Source: Eubacteriales bacterium
GTDB taxonomy: Bacteria; Bacillota; Clostridia; Oscillospirales; CAG-272
Direction of reading: 5' to 3'
DNA: 64,000 nt
Assembly: GCA_045540755.1 (NCBI GenBank)
Contig: JAZQHV010000082.1
Coordinates: forward strand, 24,952-88,951
Part shown: positions 1 to 21,218 of the stretch, piece after piece
Layout: every line of letters starts with the position of its first letter
Numbering within the stretch: the first letter of the stretch is position 1
Notes under the pieces: model-generated
Database searches by the model: none
Told to the model about the DNA's origin: nothing
Seen by the model: only the letters and a program-made list of their open reading frames with translations
Program-made: the position numbers and the translations under genes

Positions 1-382
1 AAAGGGAAGGCGAGCAGAGATATCTGCCCGAAAACAGATAGGCATCATCCTCCGGGTGCAGGTAGTTTACTACCGTGCCGACGGTCTCCCCCGTCCGCGC
101 AAGGCGCACGCGGCTCTTTTTTTCACCGGCGGCAACAAAAAATTCGTAATCGGTATCTGTTTGCAACCCCATAATGTCAAAAGCAGTATCGGGAGTTTCG
201 CCGCATATCGAAAATGCTTCCTCGCCGCGCACACGGCAGAAGACCGTGTATGTTTCGCCGATATCCAGCCATTCAAAGTGAATAGTGGTTTTAGAGGGGG
301 CAATGCGACAAATATAAATATCGCCCGTTTCCCACAAAAAGGGTTTGTAGGGAGTATAGCTCCACGTGCTTTGTCCTTGCAT
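1..382 (-). CDS. hypothetical protein, N-terminal 127 codons only (gene runs off left edge)
   Basis: ATG at 382-380 is preceded by GGAGG (392-388, 5-nt spacer) that overlaps the end of the upstream aldolase gene. The frame stays open to position 1 (MQGQSTWSYTPYKPFLWETGDIYICR...). It is absent from the ORF track because there is no stop in the window. No family recognised. Confidence 0.55.
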   Translation of the reverse strand, partial: MQGQSTWSYTPYKPFLWETGDIYICRIAPSKTTIHFEWLDIGETYTVFCRVRGEEAFSICGETPDTAFDIMGLQTDTDYEFFVAAGEKKSRVRLARTGETVGTVVNYLHPEDDAYLFSGRYLCSPSL

Positions 383-392
383 AGTAACCTCC

Positions 393-1301
393 TTATATGC
401 CTACAGTCTGCCGCGCGATCTCGGTGAGTCTGTACACGTCCTCGAGTTCATGTGCAAGAGCAGGGAGCGTGGTGTCCTTGACCGAGCGGCAGACGTCTGT
501 AATGGGAAGTCCCTCGTATTTTGCAAGATAGCGCTTGGCGCAGATAGGATAGCACCGCGCTTCGATGACCGAGAGCATACCGAGATACTTGTCGAGCGTG
601 TCTGCACGCGGGTCGTCGCGGTGCTCATACATCCAGACGTACAGATCCGGGTGAAAATTTGCCATCACACCCGAAAAGCCGTTGTAGCCAAAGCGGAGCG
701 AGTCGAGGAGCGTTGCGCAGTTGGCATTGTACAACCCGAAGTCCTTGTCAAATGCCGAGCGGAGCTTCTCACGGCGGCACATGACTTCCGTGTCGCAGGC
801 GGTATCCTTGAGAAAACGGAAGCGCCCTGTTTTCACAACAGCCTCAAATTCGCGGTCGGTCAGGTGTTGCCAGTGCGGATAAGGGCACTCGTAAAAGCCG
901 AGCGCGATCTCTTCGGGGATCTCGCGGCAGATGCGTTCCAGATTCCGCAAAAATTCGTCCTCGCTTTCGCCAAGACGGTTGCGCAGGAATACAAGCCCGT
1001 CCGCACCAATGTCGGCAATGCGTTTTGCCTCTTCGATCTGAGTATCAATTCTCTCCGTGGTCATGCCCGACACGACCACGGGGATCTTTCCCTTGTACTT
1101 TTCCATTGTCAGTCTGCCGATGGCGAGTTTTTCCTCCATGGTGAGGAAAAACATCTCGGTTGATTGGCAAACAGCAAACATACCGTGCACACCGCGCGCA
1201 AGATACCAGTCGAGCAGAGCGCTTTGTGCGCCGAGGTCTACGGCACCGTTTGTATCGTAAGCGACGAGCATCGTCGGAATAATTCCACCTTGCAGTTTCA
1301 T
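393..1301 (-). CDS. DapA/NanA-family (class I aldolase type) protein
   Basis: 302-aa ORF with family-typical length and motifs, including a candidate Schiff-base Lys in RFRFLKDTACD. Tightly linked to the downstream partial ORF. Confidence 0.75.
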   Translation of the reverse strand: MKLQGGIIPTMLVAYDTNGAVDLGAQSALLDWYLARGVHGMFAVCQSTEMFFLTMEEKLAIGRLTMEKYKGKIPVVVSGMTTERIDTQIEEAKRIADIGADGLVFLRNRLGESEDEFLRNLERICREIPEEIALGFYECPYPHWQHLTDREFEAVVKTGRFRFLKDTACDTEVMCRREKLRSAFDKDFGLYNANCATLLDSLRFGYNGFSGVMANFHPDLYVWMYEHRDDPRADTLDKYLGMLSVIEARCYPICAKRYLAKYEGLPITDVCRSVKDTTLPALAHELEDVYRLTEIARQTVGI

Positions 1302-1310
1302 GTTGTCTCC

Positions 1311-2165
1311 TTATTGTCTGGTAGTATCTTTTCTGTATTGGCTAAGGGTACAGCCCTCCTTGTTGCGGAAAAAGCGTGCCAGCGAATATTCGCTTGTAAA
1401 GCCGCTCAAAAAAGCAATTTCGTGCAGGGCGTATTCGGTCGTGGCGAGCAGCTCACGGATATAGAAGCACCGTTCCTCGTCGAGGATTTGCCGCGGTGTC
1501 TTTCCGACTGCTTTTACGGTAATGCGGCTTAGATGACGGCGGCTGAGATGAAATGTCTCGGAAAGATCGTTTACTGTTGGAAAGTTACTGCCAAGACGGC
1601 TGCGAATGAAGGTATATATACGCTCAACAAGCTCATTTTGACCGTCGGATTTGATCCGCGGCGGCGTTCCGAGTTCTGCTGCGGGAAGAATCAGTTGTAA
1701 AAGTTCAAAGAAAAACGCTTCGGTCAGGCAGCGGATCTGCAGCCCCGCTATGGACGGTTTCCCACCGGGAAGCAGGATGAGCAGTTCAGCCATCTGCCGC
1801 AGAATCAAGGATTCCTTGCAAACACCGAGAGGAATGTGGAACAATGCATCCGCCAATACGGCGTCAGTGAGTTGTACATCAAACGCAAACACCAATTTCC
1901 GCGTATGCGGCAGTGCGGCGAAGATTTCATGATAGTTCTCGGGCGGTACAAGCAGAAGATCTCCGGCACTCAGGTGATGCATTTCTCCTGCAACACGAAA
2001 ATCCATTCCGCCGTCCAGTACGTATTGCAGCTCATACAGTTTGTGCTTTGCGTTGGCGGTTAACAGACTTTCGTTATCCGACAGGACCTGTCGAAGCCAA
2101 GCAACGGTCAATGTCCCAAAATCGCCATTTATTTTAATGTAATAGCGACTTAACTTTTTTTGCAT
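1311..2165 (-). CDS. AraC-family transcriptional regulator (cupin + HTH)
   Basis: 284 aa. N-terminal cupin-like region (LLLVPPENYHEI). C-terminal AraC double HTH (LSRRHLSRITVKAVGKTPRQIL...IAFLSGFTSEYSLARFFRNKEGCTLSQYRK). Confidence 0.85.
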   Translation of the reverse strand: MQKKLSRYYIKINGDFGTLTVAWLRQVLSDNESLLTANAKHKLYELQYVLDGGMDFRVAGEMHHLSAGDLLLVPPENYHEIFAALPHTRKLVFAFDVQLTDAVLADALFHIPLGVCKESLILRQMAELLILLPGGKPSIAGLQIRCLTEAFFFELLQLILPAAELGTPPRIKSDGQNELVERIYTFIRSRLGSNFPTVNDLSETFHLSRRHLSRITVKAVGKTPRQILDEERCFYIRELLATTEYALHEIAFLSGFTSEYSLARFFRNKEGCTLSQYRKDTTRQ

Positions 2166-2322
2166 ATATACGTTTCCATTCCTGTTAAATCTTTGGTTTT
2201 ATTGTATCACAGTTGATTGGCATATACAAGAGTATGTCCTGTTTTGTTATTTTTTTGTCCTGTAGCGTGATTGCCCTGCAGTATACAAGTATGCTATCAT
2301 GAAAGCACAGGAGGCGAAGAAT

Positions 2323-5300
2323 ATGAAACGAAAGATAATTGCGCTTTTGATTGCTTCAATTTTGAGTGTATCCGTCTCTGCTGCAGAGATCACCGTCTGG
2401 AATCGTGAGATCGAGCATCCCGCGACGGAGGCGAATACAGGAAACATGAACAGTATCCCGTATAACAATCCGGATGCTGTCATGGATCTGGAAGCGGGAA
2501 CATGGGTAAAACCCGCCGTAATGGATTATGACGGAGACGGATATTGGGATATCGTTGCCGGCGGTACCGGAATCGGATACAGCGGTACTTACGTGTTTTA
2601 CGGTGATAAGGATTCTGCAGAAACTTTGCTGATGAGCAAGGCGGATAGGGTTGCTGATTCGAAGAGGTACCTGTTTGCTACCTATTTGTATGACAAAATT
2701 GAGAAAGATGGGAAATATACCTATGCATATCAGGACACGGTGTTGTTTTACAACAGCCCCTATGCTTTTTCTGATTTCGAGAATACCCAATATACAAACG
2801 GAGTTCCCCATGGGGCGGATGTGCAATGGCCGTACGCGCAAACCCGTGATAATGCGCGGAGCCTTGTGGATTTTGACGGCGATGGCGTGTACGACCTGAT
2901 CCGTGCAGTAGACAGTTGGACAGAGTACGGCGGTCTTACCGGCAATGCTTACACGGCTGACGGCACTTGGGGAGACGGAGACGATCCGTTGCACGGCTTT
3001 GTGATGTGGGCAAAGAACTATGGCACAAACGAAGCCCCAAGCTATGCAAAAACGGGCACGACGATCTGTGTGAACGGGGACATCGACACCCCAATTGACA
3101 CCTATGGTGGCGCGTATCCGAATTTTTATGATTTTGACGGCGACGGCGACCTTGACCTTATTTGCAGCAATTTTGTTGACGACATTCTCTACTATCAAAA
3201 TGTAGGCAGTGCCACCGCTCCTGTCTATGCAGAGGGCGTTCAGGTGCTGCAGGTAGAGCTATGTATGCCTGCGACAACGGTATTTGACTGGGACGGCGAC
3301 GGTGACTTCGACCTTTTGATCGGCGAGGAGGACGGCAGGATCGGTTATTATGCCAATACGGGTGTGTTTGCCGAAAACGGTGCCCCTGTTTTTGAACCTT
3401 GCCGTTATTTTCAAACGCCTGCCGATACGCTTTCTGTCGGTATGTTGAATACGCCGTTTTCCATTGACTGGGACAGTGACGGTGATGAGGACCTCTTTTC
3501 GGGGGATTCTGCCGGCTTTTTCAACTATGTGCAAAATTTGAGTATAGAAGAAGACCGAAGCTTGACCGATCCTTCTTTTGCACCGCCCGTGCGCCTGACT
3601 GATGAAAATGGCAACGTGATCCGCATTCTTGCAGGACGTGAAGGCTCTGTGCAGGGACCGTCCGAGGAGAAATGGGGTTACACGGTTATTTCCATGGGCG
3701 ACTGGGACGGAGATGGGGATGCGGACATCCTTGCCAATAGCATTTGGGGCAAGATCGTATGGCTGGAAAACCGCGGAAGCGATGCAGCAGACCCCACGCT
3801 GGATTTCTCTGCACCGAAAAGAGTAGAGGTGGACGATCCCACGCCTGAAAAGCCCTTGTGGAACTGGTGGGATCCCGAACCCTATGAGTTGGTTACCCAG
3901 TGGCGCACCACGCCGTACATGATTGATCTGCCGATCAAGGATACGGACGGGGACGGCAAACTTGACGGGGACGGGCTGATGGATATTGTTATGCTGGACA
4001 GCCACGGCTATCTTGCATTTTATGAGCGCTTTGTAGACGAGAATGGCGTGCGGAAGCTGAAAGCACCACAGCACGTCTTCTTAGACGATGGCGGCAAAAG
4101 CCTCTCTATGACCTCCAACACCAAGGGCTCCAGTGGTCGCAGAAAGATTCTTTTGACAGATTGGGACGGAGACGGTGATCTGGACATCATCCAGAACAGC
4201 AGCTATACGGTCCGCTGGTTTGAAAATATCGGCGATGCTGAAACGCCCTATAAGTTTACCGATTTCGTTTGCCTGTATGACGAACGTGATATTGCACAGC
4301 ATTCCACCTGTCCTACAGTATGCGATTGGAATCAGGACGGTGTTCCCGATCTGATCATCGGTGCGGAGGACGGACATTTCTACTATTTCACCAACCGCAC
4401 GGAGCAATACGATCCTTCTGCAAAGAATGACGGCATTGATGCACATCTCGTTGCACATTGGGACTTCATCGGCGAAACCTTGGAGGAAAGGCTGAAAGAC
4501 AAGGCGGCAGACTCGGCATATACGGCAAGCACTACGGCAGACGACCTTACGGTTGTTGGCGGTGTTACCGTAGAGGACGGGATCGCTACCCTGGATGCAA
4601 ATGCAGGAACCTATCTGAATGCGGGAAATCTTGCCGACGTCAATCAGCCGGGGCCGATGACCGTGTTTATGCGTGTCAAACTGGTAGGGGAAACCATTAC
4701 GGATTCCTTTATCGGACTTGCGGACAAACGTGTATTTAAAACGGGTGATGATGCGAAGAACCGCGCCTATGCCTTCGGTATCTGGAAGGACTGGGGCGTT
4801 ACAGGGATCGCCCGCACGACGATACACCGTACGGGAACGCTTTTTCCTGCAAATCTTTGGCGTGAACTTGCCTTCGTCGTGGACAAAAACGCGGACGGAT
4901 ATATTACCATCACGCCGTATCTGTCAAACGGACCGTATACCGATTCTTCTTCGGACTTTGCCGCACTGACCAAAAAGACAACATCGCTTACTGCGTTAAG
5001 CACTGCAAGCATAGGGGATTTGCTGCTCGGCAGAAATCCGGATAAACTTGCGTCCGGTGTTGAGGTCGTTTTTGACGATGTACGCATTTACAATACAGCC
5101 TTGACTGCTGCGGAAATGGCGTCTATTCTGGAGTCGCCGATTTCGCTTGCCCTTGCATCGCTTTCCATAGACGGTGCGAATCTGCTCCCCGTCTTTACTC
5201 CCGAAAAGGCCGCATATACCGCGCGTGTTGCTGCCGGTGTGGAATCGGTTACCGTGCGTGCAAGTGCGGGGCAGGCTGTTATTCTCACGGTAAACGGCAC

Positions 5301-6720
5301 GGCACTCACGGACGGTGCGATCACCCTGCCGCTTGCTACGGGAGAGAATCTGATCACAGTACGCTCTGCACTGCCGGATGATGCTGCCTGCTACAATGAG
5401 TACACTGTTACCGTTACACGCGAGGATGATGGCGTGGATCTCACGGGTACGCTCGTCGGCAAATGGGATTTTGAGGGGTTGACACAAGCCGAGCAGCTCG
5501 CCGACAAAGGCGACAACAGCAGCAGTACGCCGCTTTCTGTCTATGACGGTGTTCATGAGATCAACGCCGTATGCGTAGAAAGAGGCATGGTAATATACAA
5601 GAAGGGCACGATTTCCTATCTTGTCGCCGAAGGCACCCAAGAACTGTCCATTACGGGCGACCTGACGTTGGTGGCGCGTGTAAAACTGGACGGGCACACA
5701 CCGGGGCACGGCATCATCGACCATAGAAATCTGTCGGATCCCTCCGTGCGCCCATATGCGATGTATCAGGGCTATAACGTCAGCGACCGGAGCCGCTTTG
5801 GTATCGGCGGACAGATCTCCAATACCACTTCGCACACGAAGACCGTGAGGGAGAATATGCACAGTAGCGCAAAGCTCGGCGAGTGGGTGACGCTTGCAAC
5901 GGTCGTTCGGAACGTGGAAGGAAAGATGACGATGTATCTGTATGCCTCTACGTGTGAAGATCCCACGAGCGGTGCGGATTTTGTTTTGTTGCATACGCCG
6001 CAGTCGATCTCTCCGAGTTCACTGGAGGCAACGAGCTATCCGCTTTACATCGGTAATAATCCGAGTATGACTACGTTGTACGATACCATGTATATTGATG
6101 AAGCGCGGATCTACAACGTGGCGTTGACTATGGAACAGCTTGGTGCATTGCAGATGCATGTGAAGGATACCGCCTCCATGGAAACGCTTATCCTTTATGC
6201 AAAGGAGATTTCTCGGCGTGACTACACGGAGGAGTCCTACACGGATATGCTTGCCGCACTTTCTGCCGCAAAGGCGGCACAAGGGGAGGAGATCACGCCT
6301 GCGTATCATTCTCTTGCCGACGCGATCCATGCACTCGTTCCGGTGTATCCACTAGTCATCACGCCTGCATCACTTGCAGATCTCGTTCTTTTGGCAAAGG
6401 GCGAAACGGAGGAAACGCTGGGGAAAGAGAGATATGCTTTGGTCCGGGCACGGATCGACGAGGCAGAGACCCTTTTACAGTCAACGGTATCTCCTTTGCC
6501 CGAGCCGCCCGCACTCCGCACAGCGTATCTTGCGTTGCGTTTGGCATTGGAAACGGTGCCCGGTGACGTGGACGGAGACGGAGAGGTTGATATCAAGGAT
6601 GCAATGATGGGCTTGCGGTTGTTGTTGAACGCAGAATATGACAGCCTTGCGGATGTAAACAATGACGGCTCCTTGACACTAATAGATATTATTCGTATTT
6701 TAAACCTGTCAATCGAATAA
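2323..6720 (+). CDS. secreted FG-GAP/VCBS beta-propeller - LamG x2 - cadherin-like - FIVAR-like - dockerin protein
   Basis: Start trimmed to the ATG at 2323 (AGGAGG at 2309-2314, 8-nt spacer). Signal peptide MKRKIIALLIASILSVSVSAAE. Nine DxDxDG-type repeats (DFDGDGDLDL, DWDGDGDFDLLIGEEDG, DWDSDGDEDLF, DWDGDGDADIL, DWDGDGDLDII, DWNQDGVPDLIIGAEDG...). Two LamG-type tails (DDVRIYNTALTAAEM, IDEARIYNVALTMEQL). C-terminal dockerin GDVDGDGEVDIKDAMMGL...DVNNDGSLTLIDIIRIL. Confidence 0.85.
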   Translation: MKRKIIALLIASILSVSVSAAEITVWNREIEHPATEANTGNMNSIPYNNPDAVMDLEAGTWVKPAVMDYDGDGYWDIVAGGTGIGYSGTYVFYGDKDSAETLLMSKADRVADSKRYLFATYLYDKIEKDGKYTYAYQDTVLFYNSPYAFSDFENTQYTNGVPHGADVQWPYAQTRDNARSLVDFDGDGVYDLIRAVDSWTEYGGLTGNAYTADGTWGDGDDPLHGFVMWAKNYGTNEAPSYAKTGTTICVNGDIDTPIDTYGGAYPNFYDFDGDGDLDLICSNFVDDILYYQNVGSATAPVYAEGVQVLQVELCMPATTVFDWDGDGDFDLLIGEEDGRIGYYANTGVFAENGAPVFEPCRYFQTPADTLSVGMLNTPFSIDWDSDGDEDLFSGDSAGFFNYVQNLSIEEDRSLTDPSFAPPVRLTDENGNVIRILAGREGSVQGPSEEKWGYTVISMGDWDGDGDADILANSIWGKIVWLENRGSDAADPTLDFSAPKRVEVDDPTPEKPLWNWWDPEPYELVTQWRTTPYMIDLPIKDTDGDGKLDGDGLMDIVMLDSHGYLAFYERFVDENGVRKLKAPQHVFLDDGGKSLSMTSNTKGSSGRRKILLTDWDGDGDLDIIQNSSYTVRWFENIGDAETPYKFTDFVCLYDERDIAQHSTCPTVCDWNQDGVPDLIIGAEDGHFYYFTNRTEQYDPSAKNDGIDAHLVAHWDFIGETLEERLKDKAADSAYTASTTADDLTVVGGVTVEDGIATLDANAGTYLNAGNLADVNQPGPMTVFMRVKLVGETITDSFIGLADKRVFKTGDDAKNRAYAFGIWKDWGVTGIARTTIHRTGTLFPANLWRELAFVVDKNADGYITITPYLSNGPYTDSSSDFAALTKKTTSLTALSTASIGDLLLGRNPDKLASGVEVVFDDVRIYNTALTAAEMASILESPISLALASLSIDGANLLPVFTPEKAAYTARVAAGVESVTVRASAGQAVILTVNGTALTDGAITLPLATGENLITVRSALPDDAACYNEYTVTVTREDDGVDLTGTLVGKWDFEGLTQAEQLADKGDNSSSTPLSVYDGVHEINAVCVERGMVIYKKGTISYLVAEGTQELSITGDLTLVARVKLDGHTPGHGIIDHRNLSDPSVRPYAMYQGYNVSDRSRFGIGGQISNTTSHTKTVRENMHSSAKLGEWVTLATVVRNVEGKMTMYLYASTCEDPTSGADFVLLHTPQSISPSSLEATSYPLYIGNNPSMTTLYDTMYIDEARIYNVALTMEQLGALQMHVKDTASMETLILYAKEISRRDYTEESYTDMLAALSAAKAAQGEEITPAYHSLADAIHALVPVYPLVITPASLADLVLLAKGETEETLGKERYALVRARIDEAETLLQSTVSPLPEPPALRTAYLALRLALETVPGDVDGDGEVDIKDAMMGLRLLLNAEYDSLADVNNDGSLTLIDIIRILNLSIE

Positions 6721-6721
6721 A

Positions 6722-6760
6722 TAAAAAAATACAGGCAGCTTACGGCTGCCTGTATTTTTT
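6722..6760. terminator. bidirectional intrinsic terminator
   Basis: Stem acaggcagc / gctgcctgt (6731-6739 / 6745-6753) flanked by an A-run and a T-run. Sits between convergent genes. Confidence 0.75.
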
Positions 6761-7667
6761 ATTCCAGAACCTTGAGTCCTTTTGCACGCAGGATGTCCTT
6801 GGCGCGCTCGATCTCCGCCTGCTCGGGGAGAGGTGCGCTTTCGGCATCGAGGTCGTAGGGCATTTCGATCGAAGCGTATTTCATGCTCGAAAGGCTGTGG
6901 TAGGGAAGCACACGCACGCCCTTGAGTGCGTGCAACGTTGCGAGAAAATCCGCGATCTTTTCGATCTCGCCGCTGTTCTGCTTCGGCACGTAGGGAATGC
7001 GGACCTCCATCAGCTTACCCATGCGGTCGAGATAGCGGATGTTGTCGAGAATGCACTCGTTCGGCTGTCCCGTGAGTGCCTTGTGCAGATCGGAGTCGAT
7101 CGCTTTGACGTCCACAAGGAAGGTGTCGGTGTAGGGAAGCACGCGGTCGAGCTGCTCGCGCGTGGCGAACAGGCAGGTGTCCACTGCGGTGTTGATACCC
7201 TCCGCCTTCAGACGTTGCAACAGTGCGCCACAGAACTCCGATTGCATGAGCGGCTCGCCGCCCGATATGGTTACACCGCCGCCTGAGTTCTCGTAGAATT
7301 CGCGGTCGGAAAGGAGCTTTGGCAGAATGTCCTCCACCGTGACACGCTCGCCGTAAAAGATGAGCGCATCGGCAAGGCACTCGCTTGCGCACTTGCCGCA
7401 GGCACGGCATTTTTCGCGGTCAAAGCGATGTACGCCGCCCTCCATGACGTGTGCGCCATAGGGACAGATCTCCGCGCAACGACCGCAGGAGATGCATTTG
7501 TTTTCATAGTATCCGAGCTCGCTTTTCGGAGCGATGCTTTCGGGATTGTGGCACCACTTGCAATGCAAAGGACACCCTTTGACGAACAGGGTGGTGCGCA
7601 GACCGTCACCGTCGTGGATCTCAAAGCGTTTGAGATTGACGATGCGTCCAAGCGTATTTGCCATCAT
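6759..7667 (-). CDS. glycyl-radical enzyme activating protein (radical SAM)
   Basis: 302 aa. CX3CX2C motif CPLHCKWCHNPES plus two ferredoxin-like clusters (CISCGRCAEICP, CRACGKCASEC). Its ATG overlaps the GRE stop (TGATG). Confidence 0.9.
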   Translation of the reverse strand: MMANTLGRIVNLKRFEIHDGDGLRTTLFVKGCPLHCKWCHNPESIAPKSELGYYENKCISCGRCAEICPYGAHVMEGGVHRFDREKCRACGKCASECLADALIFYGERVTVEDILPKLLSDREFYENSGGGVTISGGEPLMQSEFCGALLQRLKAEGINTAVDTCLFATREQLDRVLPYTDTFLVDVKAIDSDLHKALTGQPNECILDNIRYLDRMGKLMEVRIPYVPKQNSGEIEKIADFLATLHALKGVRVLPYHSLSSMKYASIEMPYDLDAESAPLPEQAEIERAKDILRAKGLKVLE

Positions 7668-9859
7668 CAGCCCTCCGCGTTTTCACACTGACGGATCAGA
7701 TCGTTCTGCTCTGCCTCAGTCAACTCGACGAAGTAGACGTTCCAACCGCAAAGACGAACCTGCAAGGTCTTGTACTTTTCAGGCTCCTTCTGCGCCGCGC
7801 GCAGAACGTTGGGAGAAAGCACGTTCATCTGGATCGCAAAGCCGCCGCGTTGCATGTTGGTCTTGACGAGTGCGCTCATTGCCATGAGACCGCTCTCGCC
7901 CTCTGCGGCAGAACTGTGGAGCATGATATCGAGTACCGTGCCGTCGGGCACCTTGGTGTAATCCACCGATGTTGCCGAGCGGATGAGCGCGGTAACGCCC
8001 TCCTTATCCATGGCGGTGACGGCACACATGTTTTTCGAAAGCATTTCGCCGTGCTTGCGTCCGTCGGGCGAAGCGGTCATGCGTTCGCCAAAGGAAATAC
8101 GGTAGTCGATGGAGAAGAGACCGAGACGGAATACGCCGCCGCGGTGGTTGGGTTTGCCGTTGATCTCCGAAGCAACGTAGTCTACGATGTCCTTGCCGTA
8201 TGCATCGACTTCGGCGATGCCGTTGCCGTATTTCGGGAATGCCTGGCGTACTTCACGCAGAAGCAGTTCGTGACCCTCCCAGTTGTTTTTCAGGATCTCT
8301 GCAAGTTCGGAGAGCGTCATACGCTTCTGATCGTAAACAAGCTTTTTGACCGCAGTGAGCGCGTCTACCGTGCTTGCTACACTGAAGACAACGATCGAGG
8401 AGTTGCTGTAGACTGCGCCGCCGTCGTACACGTCACGGCCACGCTCGATCGCGCTTGCAAAGGTAGAAGAAAGCAACGGTGCCTGGCTGACGTAGGGGCA
8501 ATAGTCCTCTACGGCGCAGATCTTTTCCATGGTGGCGTCGATCAGGCTCTTGATCTGTGCTTTGACGGCAGTATAGAACTCGTCAAAGGTCTTGTAACTG
8601 TCGGGATCGGCGCGTACAGAGCCGATCGGACGATCCAAATAGGGGTCAACGCCCGCATACAGGACGGTGAGCAGTGCCTTGGACATATTGACTCTGCCCG
8701 CGCAGGTCCAGGGCATCTCTTTGCCGAGGGCGCAGGGCTCGTAACAGCCGATGACGGTGTAGTTGCGCGCATCCTCGGGAGAGTCGCCGATACCGATCAG
8801 CGCCTTTTCGATCACGTTGTCGTTGACGAAAACAAAACTGCTGCGACCCATGCGGATCGAGCGGAGCACGAGCTGCAAAAACTCGTCGGGCATTTCGTCA
8901 TACCAACGGATATGGATCTTCGGGTCGTGGATATCCAGTGCCGTGTATTCCTCTACGATCAGATAGGAAAGCTCGTTGATACCCGAGGAGCCGTCCGGCA
9001 GTCTGCCGCCGAGGAAGAACGGGATGTTCGCGGTAATGTGCATCGAGTGGAACTTGTGGAAGTAGTAGCGGAAGAGCTCGCGCGCCTGTTCCTTTGTGAG
9101 TTTGCCGCTCTCGATATCGCGTTTGTAGAAGGGATAGAAGAGTCGGTCGAGACCGCCTACCGAGCGGATCGCCTCGCCCTCTACGTGCGTTTGCAGGTTA
9201 TAGAAGATCATGGAAAGCTGCATGGCCGCCAGCAGGTCGCGCGGAGCGCCCACCGTAAGCGAACGCAGACTGTCGGAGATGAAAAGCATCTTTTCGCCGC
9301 CGAGTTTCGCCGTTGCGTCGGCAAAGCGACCTACAAGGTGGATCGCCGATTCCAGCGTCGTGATTACGCAGTTGTAAAAAAGATCCTGCTCCGCGGTCTT
9401 TTCGCCGTTCTCCTTTGCCGCCTTTGCGCGGGCAAGCAGACCCGGAAGGCCCAAAGTCATAACGGCATCCCAGTCGGGTGAGCAGTGGCCGAGGTCGAGG
9501 CTGCCGGTAAACGCGAGCCCCTCAACTTCTGCGTCGTACTTTTCGATCACGTCGTTTAACGACTTCTTTTCATGACGCAGGCTACGGATCCAGCGGTCAC
9601 GGATCCTCGTGATGATATAGTCGTGACGCAAACGCTCGGGGAAAAAATCCCCCTCACGCACATCAAGTTGTGCCTTGTGCAGTACGGTCTCCAGCATCTT
9701 TGTTTTTGCCAACATGCGGTTGTCGGCATACTCTTTTTCAATAGAAAGGCATTCGTCAAGCAACGCTTCGGGCGTGACACCGCTGGTTTCGTCCCATTTG
9801 CGAACGTCGTACAGCGAAGCGATCTCAGCGCGGTCCTTTTCAAAATTTCCCCAGATCAT
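7667..9859 (-). CDS. glycyl-radical enzyme, dehydratase/PFL2-like fold, substrate unknown
   Basis: Start trimmed to the ATG at 9859 (GGAGG then 8 nt), giving 730 aa. C-terminal glycyl motif LQVRLCGWNVYF. Cys loop VIGCYEPCA. GRE-typical RSVGGLDRLFYPFY and NELSYL segments. Confidence 0.9.
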   Translation of the reverse strand: MIWGNFEKDRAEIASLYDVRKWDETSGVTPEALLDECLSIEKEYADNRMLAKTKMLETVLHKAQLDVREGDFFPERLRHDYIITRIRDRWIRSLRHEKKSLNDVIEKYDAEVEGLAFTGSLDLGHCSPDWDAVMTLGLPGLLARAKAAKENGEKTAEQDLFYNCVITTLESAIHLVGRFADATAKLGGEKMLFISDSLRSLTVGAPRDLLAAMQLSMIFYNLQTHVEGEAIRSVGGLDRLFYPFYKRDIESGKLTKEQARELFRYYFHKFHSMHITANIPFFLGGRLPDGSSGINELSYLIVEEYTALDIHDPKIHIRWYDEMPDEFLQLVLRSIRMGRSSFVFVNDNVIEKALIGIGDSPEDARNYTVIGCYEPCALGKEMPWTCAGRVNMSKALLTVLYAGVDPYLDRPIGSVRADPDSYKTFDEFYTAVKAQIKSLIDATMEKICAVEDYCPYVSQAPLLSSTFASAIERGRDVYDGGAVYSNSSIVVFSVASTVDALTAVKKLVYDQKRMTLSELAEILKNNWEGHELLLREVRQAFPKYGNGIAEVDAYGKDIVDYVASEINGKPNHRGGVFRLGLFSIDYRISFGERMTASPDGRKHGEMLSKNMCAVTAMDKEGVTALIRSATSVDYTKVPDGTVLDIMLHSSAAEGESGLMAMSALVKTNMQRGGFAIQMNVLSPNVLRAAQKEPEKYKTLQVRLCGWNVYFVELTEAEQNDLIRQCENAEG

Positions 9860-10060
9860 AGTATTACCTCCGATCTTATCCGGACGGGCTCCTCCCGCCA
9901 TGTTTCCATATTTCTCTAATTTTAGAGTAACGCAGACCGAACAAAAAGTAAATGCAACTTTCGGTTATATTTATACTTTTCGACTTACTATTTTTGCATC
10001 ATCCCTTGATTTTTTTTACATTTTTTGATTAAATAAAAACAAAAGGGGAGGTGTAGCACA

Positions 10061-10861
10061 ATGGAACTTTTGGATCTGCGTCCTCGTATTGGTACCTTTT
10101 ATCAGGTGGTGGAGGGCACGATCGATCGAGTATTCATCCCTGCGGTCGCTCCGCGCCCTACTTCCGGGCTTATTTTTATATTGGAAGGCTCAATGCGTTA
10201 CCGCTTTACGGATGAAAGTGAGTTGGTCGCCACGGAAGGGGACATTTTGTTTCTTGCGCGCGGATCATTCTATTCGATGGAGCTTGTTACCGGGCCGTAT
10301 CGGTTTGTCTTTGCAAATTTTGACTTTGTTGACGGTACGGAGAATTTGCACTCTTCTGTCTTTTCGATGCAGAATGCGCGCGTGATGGAGAGCCAATTCC
10401 GCCGCATGTTGGAAAAATGGCGCCTGCAAAAGCCGGGTGCCGAGGAGGATTGCCTTTCCATCCTCTATGCCGTGTATGCCGAGCTGTTGCGTCAGCGCAC
10501 GGCGGCGTATATTCCCGCGACCAAGCGCACACGTTTGGATGCGGCGCTGCAATATATCTCCGATAACTTCGCCAATGAGGGACTCAAGGTGGAGGACGCC
10601 GCAAAAGCGGCGGGTATGGGGGAATCACACTTCCGCCGCCTGTTCAAGAGTGCTTACGCCGTTTCTCCCATTAAGTACATCTGCCTTCTGCGTGTTAACC
10701 GTGCCAAGGAGTATATCCGGTACTCCGGCGATTCCTTTGCAGAGATCGCACAGAACTGCGGCTTTGCAAGCGTCTACTATTTCAGCCGCATCTTCAAAAA
10801 GGAAGCCGGCTGCACCCCCGGCGAATATCGCGCCAAACACAAGGAATTCCCCGAAATATAA
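10061..10861 (+). CDS. AraC-family transcriptional regulator
   Basis: 266 aa. C-terminal HTH pair (ESHFRRLFKSAYAVSPIKYICLLRVNRAKEYI...FASVYYFSRIFKKEAGCTPGEYR). Divergent from the GRE operon across a 200-bp spacer. Confidence 0.85.
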   Translation: MELLDLRPRIGTFYQVVEGTIDRVFIPAVAPRPTSGLIFILEGSMRYRFTDESELVATEGDILFLARGSFYSMELVTGPYRFVFANFDFVDGTENLHSSVFSMQNARVMESQFRRMLEKWRLQKPGAEEDCLSILYAVYAELLRQRTAAYIPATKRTRLDAALQYISDNFANEGLKVEDAAKAAGMGESHFRRLFKSAYAVSPIKYICLLRVNRAKEYIRYSGDSFAEIAQNCGFASVYYFSRIFKKEAGCTPGEYRAKHKEFPEI

Positions 10862-10896
10862 AAAGAAGTCGTCCAAGCGGACGACTTCTTTGCATT
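10861..10896. terminator. bidirectional intrinsic terminator
   Basis: Stem gaagtcgtcc / ggacgacttc (10865-10874 / 10879-10888) with a flanking A-run and T-rich tail. Sits between the convergent AraC and putP genes. Confidence 0.7.
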
Positions 10897-12459
10897 TTAC
10901 GCTTCTACGTTGCCGGTGCGGACGGCTTCGAAATCTGCCTCGACTTCTTTGGAGGGAGCCTTGGTCAGGAGCGAAACGACGACGATGCAGACCGCGGAGA
11001 AGATGAATGCGGGGAGCAGCTCATAGATGCCCCATGCACCGCCGAGCGGCTTGATGACAAGCTTCCAGAGGAAGACCATGCCTGCGCCGCTGACCATGCC
11101 GGCGATTGCGCCCGCTCTGGTCGTGCGCTTCCAGAAGAGGGAGAAGAGCATCAGCGGGCCGAAGGTCGCGCCGAAGCCTGCCCATGCAAAGGATACGATC
11201 TGGAAGATGACGCTGTTTTCATCCAGCGCGATCACGATTCCGATGAGCGCAAGCACGAGCAGTGTGATGCGGGATACCCACATGACCTGCTTGTCGGTCG
11301 CGTTCTTCTTGCAGATGCCCTGGAAAATGTTCTTCGAGAATGCGGATGCCGCGATCAGCAGATAGGAGTCGGACGAGCTGATGGTTGCGGCAAGGATACC
11401 TGCCATAACGAAGCCTGCGAGGATCGCGGGCAGGGAACTGGTCGAAAGGGTGATAAAGATGTTTTCAGCGGCGGAGGCGGTCAGGTGCGCTACGGGGAAG
11501 AGCTGACGGCCTACGAGACCGATGAATACTGCAACGGCAAGGGAAATAACGACCCAGATCATGGCAATGCGGCGGGAGCGCTTGAGCTCGTCCTCCTTGC
11601 GGATCGCCATAAAGCGGAGCAGGACCTGCGGCATACCGAAGTAGCCGAGACCCCAAGCCATCATGGAGCAGATGGAGAGGAGACCGTAGGGCGCGGGATC
11701 GCCGAATACGGGTGCGCCGTCAGCAACGACCTGTACGCCGTTTTCCACAGTCGGCGTTGCCAGACCGAAGAAGTCGAGGAAACCGGGGATCGCCTTTGCG
11801 TTTTCAATCACTGCGCCGAAGCCGCCTGCATTGACCGTGCTGATGATGACGATAACCGTCAGCGCGGTGATCATGACGATCGCCTGCATGAAGTCGGAAA
11901 TACTTTCAGCGAGGAAGCCGCCAAGGAGCGTGTAGATCAGTACGAATACCGCGCCGATCAGCATCATTGCCTTGTAATTCAGACCGAAGAGCGAGGAGAA
12001 CAGCTTGCCGCAGGTGACAAAGCAGCTTGCCGCATAGACGGTGAAGAAGACAAGGATAAATGCCGCCGCGATAAAGAGGATGACCTTTTTCTTCTCGCGG
12101 AATCGGTTGGAGAAGAACTCGGGCAGGGTGATCGCGTTGTTGGCACGCACGCTGTAGCGGCGCAGGCGCTTGGAGACGATCAGCCAGTTGAAATATGTAC
12201 CCACCGCGAGGCCGATGGCAGTCCATGCCGCATCGGCAAGGCCGCACCAGTAGGCAACGCCGGGCAGACCCATCAGCAGCCAGCCGCTCATATCCGAGGC
12301 TTCGGCACTCATCGCCGTGACCCAAGGACCGAGCGAGCGACCGCCGAGGTAATATTCCTCGGAGCTCTTGTTGGCTCTCTTGGCGTACAAGACACCGATC
12401 AGGATGACAGCGGCCATATAGATGACCATCGCTATCAGAATCTGTAACGTATCGTTCAT
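10897..12459 (-). CDS. putP: sodium/proline symporter (SSS family)
   Basis: 520 aa. Close motif-by-motif resemblance to PutP (YYLGGRSLGPWVTAMSAEASDMSGWLLMGLPG, WGLGYFGMPQVLLRFMAI, SYAWAGFGATFGP). Confidence 0.8.
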   Translation of the reverse strand: MNDTLQILIAMVIYMAAVILIGVLYAKRANKSSEEYYLGGRSLGPWVTAMSAEASDMSGWLLMGLPGVAYWCGLADAAWTAIGLAVGTYFNWLIVSKRLRRYSVRANNAITLPEFFSNRFREKKKVILFIAAAFILVFFTVYAASCFVTCGKLFSSLFGLNYKAMMLIGAVFVLIYTLLGGFLAESISDFMQAIVMITALTVIVIISTVNAGGFGAVIENAKAIPGFLDFFGLATPTVENGVQVVADGAPVFGDPAPYGLLSICSMMAWGLGYFGMPQVLLRFMAIRKEDELKRSRRIAMIWVVISLAVAVFIGLVGRQLFPVAHLTASAAENIFITLSTSSLPAILAGFVMAGILAATISSSDSYLLIAASAFSKNIFQGICKKNATDKQVMWVSRITLLVLALIGIVIALDENSVIFQIVSFAWAGFGATFGPLMLFSLFWKRTTRAGAIAGMVSGAGMVFLWKLVIKPLGGAWGIYELLPAFIFSAVCIVVVSLLTKAPSKEVEADFEAVRTGNVEA

Positions 12460-12524
12460 GTGTAACCCTCCTGCGGGAATGCTTTTTTACATTAGCGCGC
12501 TAAAGCGAAATGTATATTGCTATT

Positions 12525-12554
12525 ACTATAGCACACCCAAACGGTAAAAATCAA
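12525..12554 (-). promoter_or_regulatory. putative sigma-A promoter of putP
   Basis: On the minus strand: TTGATT, 18 nt, TGcTATAGT (extended -10). Confidence 0.45.
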
Positions 12555-12665
12555 CCCTTTTTGCATAATTCTTTGGATTTTCTTGCAAAAAAATGCAAAA
12601 AACATGCCTTTTTTAGCTTTGCATTCCGCAAAATGGATTTTTTGCCCATGTGCTTTTGCAGGGAA

Positions 12666-12694
12666 TTGCATTTTCCGTGTCTCTGTGGTATACT
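12666..12694 (+). promoter_or_regulatory. putative sigma-A promoter of the PPTase gene
   Basis: TTGCAT (12666-12671), 17 nt, TGgTATACT (-10 at 12689-12694). Confidence 0.5.
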
Positions 12695-12716
12695 GATACC
12701 AAAGGAGGTGACCGCT

Positions 12717-13355
12717 GTGACGGAGGTATATATTGCGCGTGTGGATGCACTGTGTGACGATGCGGTTTTCACCGCGCGGTATGCACAAGCACCGGCAGAG
12801 CGCAGAGCAAAGATCGATGCCTTGCGGCATGCGGCGGACAAGCGTCTCTCCCTTGGCGTATGGCTTTTGCTGGCGGCGGCGCTCCGTAAGCGCGGTATCA
12901 CCGTGCCGCACCTTGCTTATGACGAAAACGGCAAGCCATACCTCGCCGACTGCCCCTCATTGCACGTCAGCCTTTCCCATTCGGGCGAGGCGGTGATGTG
13001 CGCCGTCTCGGACGGTGAAGTCGGCTGTGACATCGAGCGCCTCGGCGATGCGGATATTTCTCTTGCGGCACGTTGGTTTCACCCCGCAGAGCAGGCAAGG
13101 CTTTTTTTCGCACCGACGGAGGAGCGTCGAGCTCTCTTTTACCGTATTTGGACGGCGAAAGAGAGCTTTGCCAAATGCACGGGGCGGGGGATCGCGCACG
13201 GAATGCGCGACTTTTTCTTGGAGCCTGCGGGCACCGTCCACTGCGGCGAAAAGCAGTATCATATAAAATATGTAGATTTTGATGGCTATGCTGCCTGTGT
13301 CTGCACGGAGGCACAAGAGGATATTGACGCGACTCGGGATATTGTGTTATACTAA
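12717..13355 (+). CDS. Sfp-type 4'-phosphopantetheinyl transferase
   Basis: GTG at 12717, 8 nt after AAAGGAGG. Motifs GKPYL, SLSHSGEAVMCAVS, VGCDIE, WTAKESFAKCTGRG. Confidence 0.75.
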   Translation: MTEVYIARVDALCDDAVFTARYAQAPAERRAKIDALRHAADKRLSLGVWLLLAAALRKRGITVPHLAYDENGKPYLADCPSLHVSLSHSGEAVMCAVSDGEVGCDIERLGDADISLAARWFHPAEQARLFFAPTEERRALFYRIWTAKESFAKCTGRGIAHGMRDFFLEPAGTVHCGEKQYHIKYVDFDGYAACVCTEAQEDIDATRDIVLY

Positions 13356-13382
13356 ATAAAACCAACTTTCAAGGAGAAGATC

Positions 13383-14852
13383 ATGTATCAGAAGGACATA
13401 CATAAGGTCTGGCTGGCGACAGGAGAAAAGCGTGTATATCTTGAGCCGTCGATGGCAAACCGTCACGGTCTCATCGCGGGCGCTACCGGCACAGGTAAGA
13501 CCGTAACGCTTAAGGTGCTTGCCGAATCCTTCAGTGACATGGGCGTGCCCGTGTTTGTTGCGGACATCAAGGGCGATCTGTCGGGTATGTGTACCGAGGG
13601 TAAGGAAAACAAGCACATCCGCCGCAGTATCGACACCATGGGGCTGACAGATTATACCTATTGCAAATATCCCGTGCAATTCTGGGACGTCTACGGTAAA
13701 AAGGGACTCCCCGTGCGTACGACCATTTCCGAGATGGGCCCTGAACTGCTTGCAAGACTGCTTGGTCTCAACGATACGCAGAGTGGCGTGCTCCGCATTG
13801 TGTTCCGTGTTGCGGATGAGCGCGGACTGCTCCTCATCGACCTCAAGGATCTGCGCGCCATGCTACAGTACGTCGGCGACAACGCAAGCGAGTTCAAGCT
13901 GACCTACGGCAACGTTTCCGCACAGTCGGTCGGTGCGATCCAGCGTGCACTCCTTACATTAGAGGATGCGGGCGGCGAGCAGTTCTTCGGCGAGCCCTCT
14001 CTTTCGCTTTCCGATTGGTTTGCGTGGGACGAAAACGGCAGAGGTTATATGAATATTCTCGAATGTGCCGAGCTGTTTCAGAATCCGCTTCTGTACGGCA
14101 CGTTCTTACTTTGGATGCTGTCGGAGATCTACGATATGCTCCCCGAGGCGGGCGACCTTGACAAGCCGAAGTTCGCCTTCTTCTTTGATGAGGCACATCT
14201 GCTCTTTGACGATGCGCCGAAGGCGCTTGTGGATAAGGTAGAGCAGGTCGCGCGTCTGATCCGCTCCAAGGGCGTCAGCGTTTGGTTCATCACGCAGAAT
14301 CCCACCGACATTCCCGACAGTGTGCTCGGACAGATCGGTAACCGTGTTCAGCATGCGCTTCGCGCTTACACGCCGCACGATCAGAAGGCACTGCGTGCCG
14401 CGGCAAATTCCTTCCGCGCAAACGAGGCGTTCGACACCGCCGAGGCGATCCAGTCGCTCGGCACGGGCGAGGCGCTCGTCTCCGTACTGGATGAAAAGGG
14501 CATTCCCACCGTTGTAGAACGCGCCAACATTCTCCCGCCGCGTAGCAGTATGTCCGCTATTGAGGAGGTGCTTTTGCAGGCGACCGTGCTTTCGAGCGCG
14601 TATCATGACAAGTACGCTAAGGAAGTGGACAACGAATCGGCATATGAGGTTTTGACCGAGGAGACTGCCGAAAAGGAGAAGGAAGCCACTGAGGCAATGG
14701 AAAAAGCCAAAAAGGAAAAAGAAAAGAAAAAGACCACGGGCAGAAAGAAGACGTCGACCATTGAAAGAATGGTCAACAGCACTGCCAACACCATTGGTCG
14801 CGAGATCGGCAAAAAAATCGTCCGCGGTATTTTCGATACCTTTTTCAAATGA
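13383..14852 (+). CDS. HerA-like/DUF853 (YjgR-type) P-loop ATPase
   Basis: 489 aa. Walker [13 protein letters not shown]. Walker B-like [12 protein letters not shown]. Lys/Glu-rich C-terminal tail. Confidence 0.8.
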
Positions 14853-20847: not shown

Positions 20848-20935
20848 TTCTCGCCCCACCTTGCGCGGGGCTTTGCTTTTGTGTCCGCAAAAGCAGTGCT
20901 TGTCAGGAAAATTGACAAGGCATAGATGAACATAA

Positions 20936-21068
20936 AAAAGGCTCCCTTGTGTAAAGGGAGCTGTCACCGAAGGTGACTGAGGGATTGTTTTTTTGGTAGA
21001 ATTTTGTTTTTTACAATCCCTCCGTCTCGCTTGCGCGAGCCACCTCCCTTTACACAAGGGAGGCTCAT
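20936..21068. repeat. nested imperfect palindrome (REP/MITE-like intergenic element)
   Basis: 19-bp perfect inverted repeat at 20942-20960 / 21044-21062. Inner inverted repeat gagggattgt (20979-20988) / acaatccctc (21013-21022). Each arm carries its own small hairpin, and the centre is T-rich. Confidence 0.6.
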
Positions 21069-21218
21069 TACCGCCCGACAGTACACCTCAAAGGTGTAAC
21101 ACACTATACCTTGCAGAGAAAGGCGTATGAAAAGGAGTATGAACAAATCGTCCGTACTCCTTTTGCTTTTTTCGGCAGGTAAAACCTGCTTTATTGAAGG
21201 AGCCTTTTGGCTCCTTTT

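Follow-up and report, generated by a model that had tools for sequence, protein, structure and literature searches.

A compact glycyl-radical enzyme and its activase in a clostridial genome represent a large clade apart from the characterized enzymes

Introduction

Glycyl-radical enzymes (GREs) perform, to our knowledge, radical chemistry that lies beyond other anaerobic enzymes. Each newly assigned GRE clade that we know of has revealed a gut-relevant pathway, including those from choline to trimethylamine and from isethionate to H2S, the hydroxyproline pathway, and anhydroglycolysis. The characterized PFL-like GREs have been catalogued in a 2026 review of the superfamily, in which entire clades are still unannotated. 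The present work deals with a GRE encoded together with its activase in a stretch of 64,000 nucleotides (the window) from Eubacteriales bacterium (GTDB lineage Bacteria; Bacillota; Clostridia; Oscillospirales; CAG-272), taken from NCBI GenBank assembly GCA_045540755.1, contig JAZQHV010000082.1, positions 24,952 to 88,951 of the forward strand. An initial annotation, made from the sequence letters without database searches, had described this GRE as compact and unassigned, with an AraC regulator on one side and a PutP-type symporter beyond it. The question raised by the locus is what kind of reaction such an enzyme carries out, and on which class of substrate. The GRE belongs to a large separate clade, no member of which matches any characterized GRE. 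With moderate confidence, it can be regarded as a radical 1,2-eliminase or ring-opening isomerase that would act on a carbohydrate-derived, possibly anionic polyol. The system is not categorically new, as GRE-plus-activase systems and unannotated GRE clades are already well known.

An intact operon for a glycyl-radical enzyme

The locus is an intact AraC-linked operon of a GRE and its activase (coordinates in Table 1). Neither gene is disrupted, the GRE retains its catalytic residues, and its fold is predicted at high confidence. The longest open reading frame (ORF) for the GRE on the minus strand extends over 7667..9901 and gives 744 aa from its first ATG, and a GGAGG ribosome-binding site located 7 nt 5' of the ATG at 9859 leads to a product of 730 aa. 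Homologues range from 717 to 745 aa among the 120 listed, most of the full-length ones having 717-735 aa. The 730-aa call is correct because of this ribosome-binding site and the lengths of the homologues, and a mis-called start, which the initial annotation had named as a possible source of the short length, is ruled out on the same grounds.

The TGA of the GRE gene shares its A with the ATG of the activase gene (GGC TGA TG ATG GCA), and GGAGGG stands ahead of the overlap. The activase contains the motif C32-x3-C-x2-C39 and two ferredoxin-like clusters, C58-x2-C-x2-C-x3-C68 and C87-x2-C-x2-C-x3-C97. It scores 326.6 bits on TIGR02494 (cut-off 174.35), and its second-best NCBIfam match is the HypD activase model (313 bits, cut-off 425). 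No strong sigma-70 consensus was found in the 201-bp intergenic region at 9860-10060, through which AraC1 presumably controls the GRE operon. The structural claims of the initial annotation are borne out by these results: the length of the GRE with its glycyl motif and Cys loop, the TGATG overlap of stop and start, the three Cys motifs of the activase, and an AraC gene placed divergently about 200 bp upstream. A 607-codon antisense ORF also lies within the GRE gene (7658-9481, plus strand); similar long shadow ORFs overlap other genes, and this one is taken to be a compositional artefact, not a gene.

The GRE matches the Pfam families PFL-like (9.7e-106) and Gly_radical (PF01228, 3.9e-20), with the glycyl motif LQVRLCGWNVYF at residues 699-710 and the Cys loop VIGCYEPCA at residues 369-377. 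An AF2 model, built on an alignment of 56 family members, reached a pLDDT of 94.6 and a pTM of 0.92. A Foldseek search with this model returned TM-scores of 0.85-0.89 to all eliminase/isomerase GREs at 20-25% identity, none of them standing out. The catalytic set consists of Gly705, Cys372-Tyr373-Glu374 (the CXE motif), and His125, which are invariant in 56/56 family members. In alignments, Gly705, Cys372, Glu374, and His125 correspond to Gly763, Cys433, Glu435, and His164 of glycerol dehydratase (GD), while Cys372, Glu374, and His125 correspond to Cys434, Glu436, and His160 of HypD, the glycine of which likewise pairs with Gly705. The roles of these residues in CXE-type GREs have been described previously (PMC13450708, PMC7077986). 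The protein therefore has the marks of the GRE superfamily, namely a glycyl radical domain, a Cys-loop Cys within the predicted ten-stranded barrel, and a dedicated adjacent activase, along with the CXE motif that defines the eliminase/isomerase class. No small subunits are encoded near the GRE.

Separation from characterized enzymes

Membership in any characterized GRE group is ruled out by NCBIfam cut-offs, identities to solved structures, and a neighbour-joining (NJ) tree. The score on TIGR01774 (PFL2/glycerol dehydratase) is 356.6 bits, the cut-off being 678.2. The corresponding scores and cut-offs are 317 and 1100 bits for HypD (NF043068), 308 and 1000 for HpfG (NF048009), 265 and 1050 for CutC (TIGR04394), 257 and 1109 for the PflD type (NF007437), 185 and 1150 for HPAD (NF033715), and 88 and 994 for PFL (TIGR01255). 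The scores on HpsG (NF048011, 253 bits) and IAD (NF033718, 161 bits) are likewise below the curated cut-offs, and a family paralogue from locus L012 also stays below that of TIGR01774 (333.3 bits).

Among solved structures, the best sequence match is glycerol dehydratase (6e-81), with HypD, Archaeoglobus fulgidus PFL2 (AfPFL2), HpzG, CutC, and propanediol dehydratase (PD) close behind, and the identity to all solved GREs is 20-29%. PDB entry 9RCO, deposited as 'Glycyl radical protein', proved to be propanediol dehydratase. A profile of the 56 family members gives 464 bits for GD, 452 for AfPFL2, 442 for HypD, 435 for PD, 419 for PflD, 412 for HpzG, 381-412 for CutC, 391 for YbiW, and 371 for HplG; decarboxylases and X-succinate synthases reach 247-298 bits, as against 371-464 for the eliminases and isomerases. 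In the NJ tree, the family forms one clade with 39-100% identity to the window GRE, and GD, PD, HypD, PflD, and AfPFL2 fall outside at 25-29%; as only these five solved GREs were included, with sequences taken from HMMER output, the tree is supporting rather than decisive. Nothing was found in the literature on the GCYEP clade, nor on a GRE acting on sugar acids.

The GCYEP family and its pocket subtypes

The extent of the family was estimated with family-specific motifs in one genome per species, which yielded at least 599 matches, at least 593 of them confirmed as family relatives. The 80 best loci all come from metagenome-assembled genomes (MAGs), mostly of Clostridia (Oscillospiraceae, Acutalibacteraceae, Lawsonibacter, Faecousia) along with a few Armatimonadota. 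Their sources are the guts of ruminants, chickens, horses, and humans as well as digesters.

Across the 56 aligned members (36-100% identity), the invariant positions comprise His125, Arg232, Gly371-Cys-Tyr-Glu-Pro375, Glu381, Arg573-Gly-Gly, Asp644, and a C-terminal stretch, Gln700-Val-Arg-x-Cys-Gly705-Trp-Asn-x-Tyr-Phe. Because of this invariance, the Tyr of GCYEP and the Cys-Gly-Trp at the radical Gly serve as family signatures, and the clade can be recognized by the motifs GCYEP and VCGWN. Compactness is a further family trait: the N-terminus is about 36 residues shorter than that of GD, and the HSMH-LGG loop is shorter by 12-13 residues. In other eliminases, this loop holds an active-site Phe (GD Phe333, CutC Phe389, PD Phe338), and in HypD it holds Ser334. 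The initial annotation had proposed a distinct subfamily of unassigned substrate on the basis of the shorter N-terminus and the Tyr in the Cys loop, and had suggested a phylogeny together with a structural comparison of the active site. The proposal is strengthened by the scores below cut-off, the 20-29% identity, the separate clade, the invariant Tyr, and the compactness seen family-wide; the NJ tree placed the GRE outside the characterized members, and the comparison, through a predicted GRE fold and alignments, found the substrate residues of HypD and GD mostly replaced.

Besides the catalytic Cys, the family shows conserved cysteines at 384 (51/56), 386 (29/56), and 704 (55/56). A Cys immediately before the radical Gly also occurs in class III ribonucleotide reductases (RNRs). 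Other GRE chemistry, such as C-C cleavage, decarboxylation, or an RNR-like reductive dehydroxylation by way of Cys384/Cys386 and Cys704, could draw on these unusual cysteines and on the equidistance of the family from all known GRE classes. It is nevertheless very improbable, since the invariant Glu of the CXE motif and the His mark eliminases and isomerases, the family profile gives lower scores for decarboxylases and X-succinate synthases, the window GRE itself has Trp384 in place of Cys, and no small subunits are encoded nearby. Trp384 (DNA ~8708-8710) is shared with the two closest relatives, and GD has Trp445 at that site; residue 384 may act as a specificity switch within the subtype.

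The window GRE belongs to a pocket type with the signature x-G-A-N-x-[C/W]-C-R-[Y/W]-R at residues 230, 236, 277, 278, 378, 384, 386, 389, 586, and 587, and its subtype is marked by Arg389 and Arg587. A second pocket type, RR[F/Y]DWCGG.., has Arg230 and Arg236 in place of Arg389/Arg587. Further types belong to second paralogues placed in tandem, with a single activase for both copies (L012, L019, L034, L035, L038, L041, and L070). Such tandem paralogues, present in L089 as well, are often arranged as GRE-GRE-activase, sometimes each with its own AraC gene, for example with the pocket NAANACLRWI followed by QGWGKTFTAF. The different pockets of tandem paralogues suggest substrate diversification, with an activase that would be shared between the paralogues.

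Substrate-site residues

The residues that bind the substrate in the best-matching enzymes are mostly replaced. In single-sequence and profile alignments alike, HypD Asp278 becomes Ala230, Tyr450 becomes Arg389, and Thr645 becomes Ile584, whereas GD Asp447 becomes Cys386 and Tyr640 becomes Phe582. The region of GD His281/Ser282 corresponds to Glu229-Ala230-Ile231, with an uncertain register at 229-232 owing to a one-residue shift between alignments. For the shortened loop (GD Tyr339; HypD Asp339 and Phe340), the two alignments also disagree, so that its mapping is uncertain as well. Among the substrate residues of GD, only the equivalent of His164 is retained, and the essential set of HypD (Asp278, Ser334, Asp339, Phe340, Tyr450, and Thr645) is not kept, the Ser334 loop being deleted. 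Arg389 occupies the site of the carboxylate-binding Tyr450 of HypD, and the arginines covary between pocket subtypes. The substrate of the window subtype (Arg232, Arg389, and Arg587) is possibly anionic, because an Arg stands at the carboxylate-binding site and the arginines move between subtypes.

These replacements bear on the possibility of a diverged small-diol dehydratase for glycerol, 1,2-propanediol, or ethylene glycol, which would dispose of diols arising from the fermentation of fucose, rhamnose, or other sugars. Such an enzyme would account for glycerol and propanediol dehydratase being the best sequence and fold matches, for the retained Cys/Glu/His triad of GD/PD, and for the rhamnosidase-like and fucosidase genes near some family members. 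However, the identity to GD/PD is only 25-29%, the TIGR01774 score is 356 against 678 bits, other residues stand at the positions of GD His281, Ser282, Asp447, and Tyr640, and the loop with Phe333 is missing. Moreover, genes for a microcompartment, an aldehyde dehydrogenase, or a 1,3-propanediol dehydrogenase are absent around the operon, and one or two small diols would not require so many pocket subtypes and tandem paralogues. A small-diol substrate is thus unlikely.

The symporter gene and the proline idea

The gene next to AraC1 might suggest a different substrate. Its product passes the PutP equivalog model TIGR02121 at 521.3 bits, just over the cut-off of 515.5, and the initial annotation had offered, as a weak guess, a proline or hydroxyproline-like substrate. 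On this reading, the GRE would be a dehydratase or lyase supplied with substrate by the neighbouring PutP, in keeping with HypD and HpzG among its top matches and with the HypD activase model as the second-best match of its activase. Several observations speak against it. The HypD model gives 317 bits against a cut-off of 1100, and HypD Asp278, Tyr450, and Thr645 are replaced by Ala230, Arg389, and Ile584, with the Ser334 loop lost. The putP gene is convergent with AraC1 and lies behind the hairpin terminator at 10862-10891; together with a second hairpin, this terminator brackets the AraC1/GRE-activase unit and sets it apart from putP. A putP/SSS gene was found only in loci of the same species (a fragment in L001, and L092), and none is present in the 88%-identical relative L002 or in any other locus examined outside the species. 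Furthermore, annotation of the genes up to about 10 kb away, the part of the window scanned for it, showed no P5C (pyrroline-5-carboxylate) reductase, in agreement with the initial annotation, which had reported no such gene.

A link from putP to a proline substrate is therefore rejected in view of the convergent orientation, the terminator, the absence outside the species, and the replaced HypD residues. The putP gene is probably unrelated to the GRE, a proline or hydroxyproline substrate appears largely refuted by the sequence comparisons, and a proline-type dehydratase or lyase is extremely improbable. The earlier guess finds no support, given the lack of putP conservation, the replacement of the HypD residues, and a neighbourhood that is carbohydrate-related. 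As for the separate transcription of putP, the bidirectional terminator described in the initial annotation is present as a hairpin with a 13-bp stem, but the promoter attributed to the gene (TTGATT-18-TGnTATAGT, 5' of putP) is a consensus match no commoner here than in shuffled sequence.

The neighbourhood across the family

The surroundings of the GRE gene were compared in 89 loci, with genes called by a crude ORF picker and then clustered. AraC genes are the most conserved neighbours (56/89, mostly divergent), followed by activase genes in at least 50/89 and a second family paralogue in 14/89; the activase count is a minimum, as some activases were mis-called as antisense ORFs (cluster c5). 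Beyond AraC, activase, and paralogues, no further conserved pathway neighbour appeared in the 89 loci. The GRE-activase-AraC arrangement, the conservation of which the initial annotation had proposed to examine across genomes, recurs in the family, but its putP extension does not.

Most co-directional and tightly spaced neighbours are related to carbohydrates. They include members of the glycoside hydrolase (GH) families GH43, GH20, GH3, GH88, and GH130 and, in two loci, GH78-like enzymes. Three further finds come from two loci each: a rhamnogalacturonase-like protein of pectate-lyase fold next to an MFS transporter, a sulfatase paired with an amidohydrolase, and an SGL lactonase. SASA and GDSL esterases are also present. 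Additionally, sugar ABC binding and permease proteins, EamA transporters, and GFO/IDH/MocA and Zn-dependent dehydrogenases occur in such positions. Among 216 genes at most two positions from the GRE, there are five BNR_2, three GH43, three GH2, two rhamnosidase, two sulfatase, and two 3-keto-disaccharide hydrolase genes; in a control set of 115 genes at least six positions away, no GH family has two or more members among the listed families. The enrichment of carbohydrate genes near the GRE is real, albeit roughly quantified. The substrate is probably derived from carbohydrate rather than from proline, because the family sits among sugar-degrading genes.

Some clades have neighbours of their own. 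In seven loci of a clade 63-67% identical to the window GRE, a secreted protein of 1030-1047 aa is encoded at most about 20 bp after the activase gene and combines copper-amine-oxidase-N1 stalk domains with a sialidase-like propeller. The BNR_2 proteins were considered as one conserved partner and rejected, as the presumably cytoplasmic 456-aa form of the present species and the secreted 1045-aa form of the 65% clade share only Asp-box repeats; their recurrence thus lies at the level of the fold, not of orthology. A divergent DHQase-I-like gene adjoins the GRE module in the 65% clade (L014, 10045-11820; L015, 11154-12929; L003, 294-1226), and in L014 and L015 it has its own AraC gene, the two coming next after the gene for the secreted protein. 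The DHQase-I-like product scores 38 bits on aroD (cut-off 139), and no sequence relative of it was found in the PDB. Its companions in L003 are Zn-dependent and GFO/IDH dehydrogenases together with a carboxylate transporter of the CitMHS type and a Mem_trans protein. This context could point to a cyclitol-carboxylate (quinate-like) route.

Proposed reaction

A possible partner for the product of the reaction is encoded in the left part of the window. The DHDPS-type protein retains YECPY (YxxPY) and FLKDT (LKDT), the motifs of the catalytic Tyr and the Schiff-base Lys, and its nearest PDB relatives, at about 1e-9, are DHDPS, the 2-keto-3-deoxy-acid aldolase YagE, and L-KDA dehydratase. It meets no specific NCBIfam equivalog cut-off, and no database record was found for the exact protein (393..1301). 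Schiff-base TIM-barrel enzymes recur beside the module in a few loci and would fit a keto or keto-acid product. The products of the isomerases YbiW and PflD are passed to downstream aldolases, which sets a precedent for a GRE-aldolase pairing.

The substrate class, the regulatory logic, and a downstream aldolase step can be inferred as follows. AraC1 would activate the GRE-activase operon upon sensing the substrate or a precursor, presumably as a sugar-derived inducer. The activase, with one S-adenosylmethionine (SAM) cluster and two auxiliary [4Fe-4S] clusters, would abstract a hydrogen from Gly705, and the resulting glycyl radical would generate a thiyl radical on Cys372. By analogy with other CXE-type GREs, the latter could abstract the hydrogen of a substrate carbon that bears a hydroxyl, while Glu374 would deprotonate this hydroxyl to give a ketyl radical and His125 would assist the loss of the leaving group on the adjacent carbon, by breakage of a C-O (or C-N) bond. 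Return of the hydrogen from Cys372 would then yield a carbonyl product (ketone or aldehyde), so that the net reaction would be a 1,2-dehydration/elimination or a ring-opening isomerization. The keto product could be handled by the nearby Schiff-base DHDPS-type aldolase/dehydratase. The favoured substrate would be a carbohydrate-derived polyhydroxy acid such as a sugar acid, an ulosonic acid, or a quinate-like cyclitol carboxylate.

A narrower version of this chemistry is a ring-opening isomerase of the YbiW/PflD/HplG type, which would cleave an intramolecular C-O (ether) or C-N bond beside a carbinol in an anhydro-sugar or other cyclic substrate and hand the isomeric ketone to an aldolase for cleavage. 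CXE and His are common to the isomerases, PflD and YbiW reach 419 and 391 bits on the family profile, and the carbohydrate context with class I aldolase-type genes nearby parallels the pairing of YbiW/PflD with aldolases. On the other hand, the identity to PflD is about 26%, no closer than that to the dehydratases; no phosphotransferase system (PTS) or kinase is consistently linked, which makes a phosphorylated anhydro-sugar unlikely; and elimination and isomerization are not separable by sequence alone. An isomerase of this particular type is rather unlikely, and the broader reading of an eliminase or ring-opening isomerase for a carbohydrate-derived polyol is preferred.

Several points weigh against the preferred reading. 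A terminator and 5.4 kb separate the operon of the window from the DHDPS and BNR_2 genes, and in L001 a terminator and a promoter stand between them and the operon. Arg232 may be a structural residue that makes up for the conserved Arg in the GRxDQ motif of other GREs, a position occupied by Gly236 in the window GRE. The distal control set also holds GFO/IDH and fucose-isomerase-like genes, and the genomes are rich in sugar genes anyway. Moreover, the enrichment of carbohydrate-active enzymes is rough, as it rests on crude ORF calls and the 25 commonest families per set. The lack of a conserved neighbour beyond AraC and activase means that the context does not give the substrate, and the family is clearly multi-specific.

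Tentatively, the GCYEP family might be a group of multi-specificity radical carbohydrate-active enzymes in the polysaccharide-utilization loci of Gram-positive gut anaerobes, with pocket subtypes tuned to different glycan-derived substrates and, in the present case, a keto product delivered to the DHDPS-type enzyme. If this possibility were true, it would be the first GRE family to have as its direct targets unphosphorylated sugars, sugar acids, cyclitol carboxylates, or even glycosidic/ether linkages. The clade, with at least 593 loci when one genome per species is counted, comes almost entirely from uncultured gut or rumen Clostridia along with a few Armatimonadota. Its assignment would probably bring to light a radical step new to the anaerobic breakdown of carbohydrates or plant acids, and annotation pipelines could then replace the label 'formate C-acetyltransferase' with a defined family. 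The size of the clade, the diversification of its paralogues, the coupling to AraC, and the glycan-locus context make it a worthwhile target for radical carbohydrate chemistry.

Other features of the window and strain variation

The features of the window around the operon are collected in Table 1.

Table 1. Genes and regulatory elements at and around the GRE operon (positions in the window)
Feature	Position	Strand	Basis and remarks
GRE gene, 730 aa	7667..9859	-	Pfam PFL-like and Gly_radical; ribosome-binding site and ATG; AF2 fold; family invariants
GRE-activating radical-SAM enzyme, 302 aa	6759..7667	-	TIGR02494; Radical_SAM and Fer4 Pfam domains
AraC1, AraC-family regulator, 266 aa	10061..10861	+	HTH_18 5.6e-23, HTH_AraC 1.4e-19; divergent from GRE operon
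Divergent AT-rich intergenic region between GRE and AraC1, 201 bp	9860..10060		Presumed AraC-dependent control region (inferred role)
Bidirectional hairpin terminator, 16-bp stem, A/T runs	6724..6760		Closes GRE-activase operon and convergent giant gene
Bidirectional hairpin terminator, 13-bp stem, A/T runs	10862..10891		Separates convergent AraC1 and putP
PutP-type Na+/solute symporter, 520 aa	10897..12459	-	TIGR02121; separate transcription unit
Giant protein, 1473 aa, with FG-GAP, laminin-G, cadherin-like, and dockerin domains	2299..6720	+	Pfam; convergent with activase
AraC2, AraC-family regulator with cupin ligand-binding domain	1311..2165	-	Directly 5' of DHDPS-family gene
Divergent DHDPS/NAL-family class I aldolase/dehydratase, 302 aa	393..1301	-	Pfam DHDPS (PF00701) 1.5e-20
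BNR_2 (sialidase-fold) gene, 5' part, cut by window edge	1..382	-	Pfam BNR_2 1.2e-09; window aligned to L001

The giant FG-GAP/dockerin protein is presumably secreted or located at the surface; it was set aside as a lead, having no sequence relative in the PDB and no informative NCBIfam match. The BNR_2 protein has 456 aa in L001 and L092 and shows weak GH93-like matches, and no hydrophobic signal sequence was evident when its N-terminus was read by eye.

A 5.4-kb segment with the giant gene and AraC2 is polymorphic between strains of the species (window 1314-6758, compared with 4396-4471 in L001). The segment is present in the window and, with the same gene order, in the MAG contig L092, whereas it is absent from L001, which has a GRE 100% identical and flanks 96-99% identical to those of the window. 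The window and L001 forms each have their own terminator hairpin after the activase gene. In L001, the DHDPS and BNR_2 genes directly follow the activase gene, behind a separate terminator and a TGnTATAAT promoter. The contig L092 also contains a gene for the large subunit of an [FeFe]-hydrogenase (20877-22193) next to BNR_2, just beyond the left edge of the window.

On the other side of putP, positions 12510-14852 encode a 4'-phosphopantetheinyl transferase (ACPS domain) and a HerA-like ATPase (HerA_C 1.6e-209). The same pair flanks putP in L092 and has no evident link to the GRE. A third AraC-family gene (19645-20847, plus strand; 400 aa, N-terminal HTH) is located about 9 kb from the operon, AraC regulators being unusually dense in this region.

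Comparison with known systems

The B12-independent glycerol dehydratase (DhaB1 of Clostridium butyricum, 1R8W/1R9D) is the best match and shares the ten-stranded barrel, the Gly/Cys/Glu/His set, and an adjacent dedicated activase with two auxiliary clusters. Compared to GD and PD (5I2A/5I2G), however, the identity is 25-29%, the window GRE is about 55 residues shorter, and it has GCYEP and VCGWN where they have GCVEP and VAGYS. Unlike these systems, the window locus contains no diol-pathway or microcompartment genes. The trans-4-hydroxy-L-proline dehydratase HypD (6VXC/6VXE) and the N-methyl-hydroxyproline dehydratases HpyG/HpzG (8ID1/8IOF) resemble the window GRE in the CXE motif, the His, the GKE after the Cys loop, and a TM-score of about 0.87, but the identity is 21-28%, and neither a P5C reductase nor a conserved proline transporter belongs to the window locus.

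The 'anhydroglycolysis' isomerases YbiW and PflD (8ID7, 8ID0, 8YJO), which process carbohydrates to ketones split by aldolases, likewise have CXE and His, and an aldolase-type gene near the window GRE along with the sugar-degrading neighbours of its family adds to the likeness. They differ in an identity of 22-26% and in a PTS/sugar-phosphate context, which the window locus lacks, its aldolase candidate being of the DHDPS family. The choline trimethylamine-lyase CutC (5FAU, 5A0U) shares the eliminase fold and CXE, with 381-412 bits on the family profile, whereas the identity is 22-25%, TIGR04394 gives 265 against 1050 bits, and microcompartment and cut genes are absent from the window locus.

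AfPFL2 (2F3O), the function of which is debated, is archaeal and hyperthermophilic, has GCVE in its Cys loop, and falls outside the family in the NJ tree at 28% identity. Nevertheless, it is the second-best profile match (452 bits), and it is itself relatively compact (776 aa). At the Gly loop, where GD, PD, HypD, and PflD have AGY, AfPFL2 (RVAGWSAYFVELS) and the window GRE (RLCGWNVYFVELT; residues 699-713, DNA ~7720-7765) have G-W-x-x-YFVEL in common.

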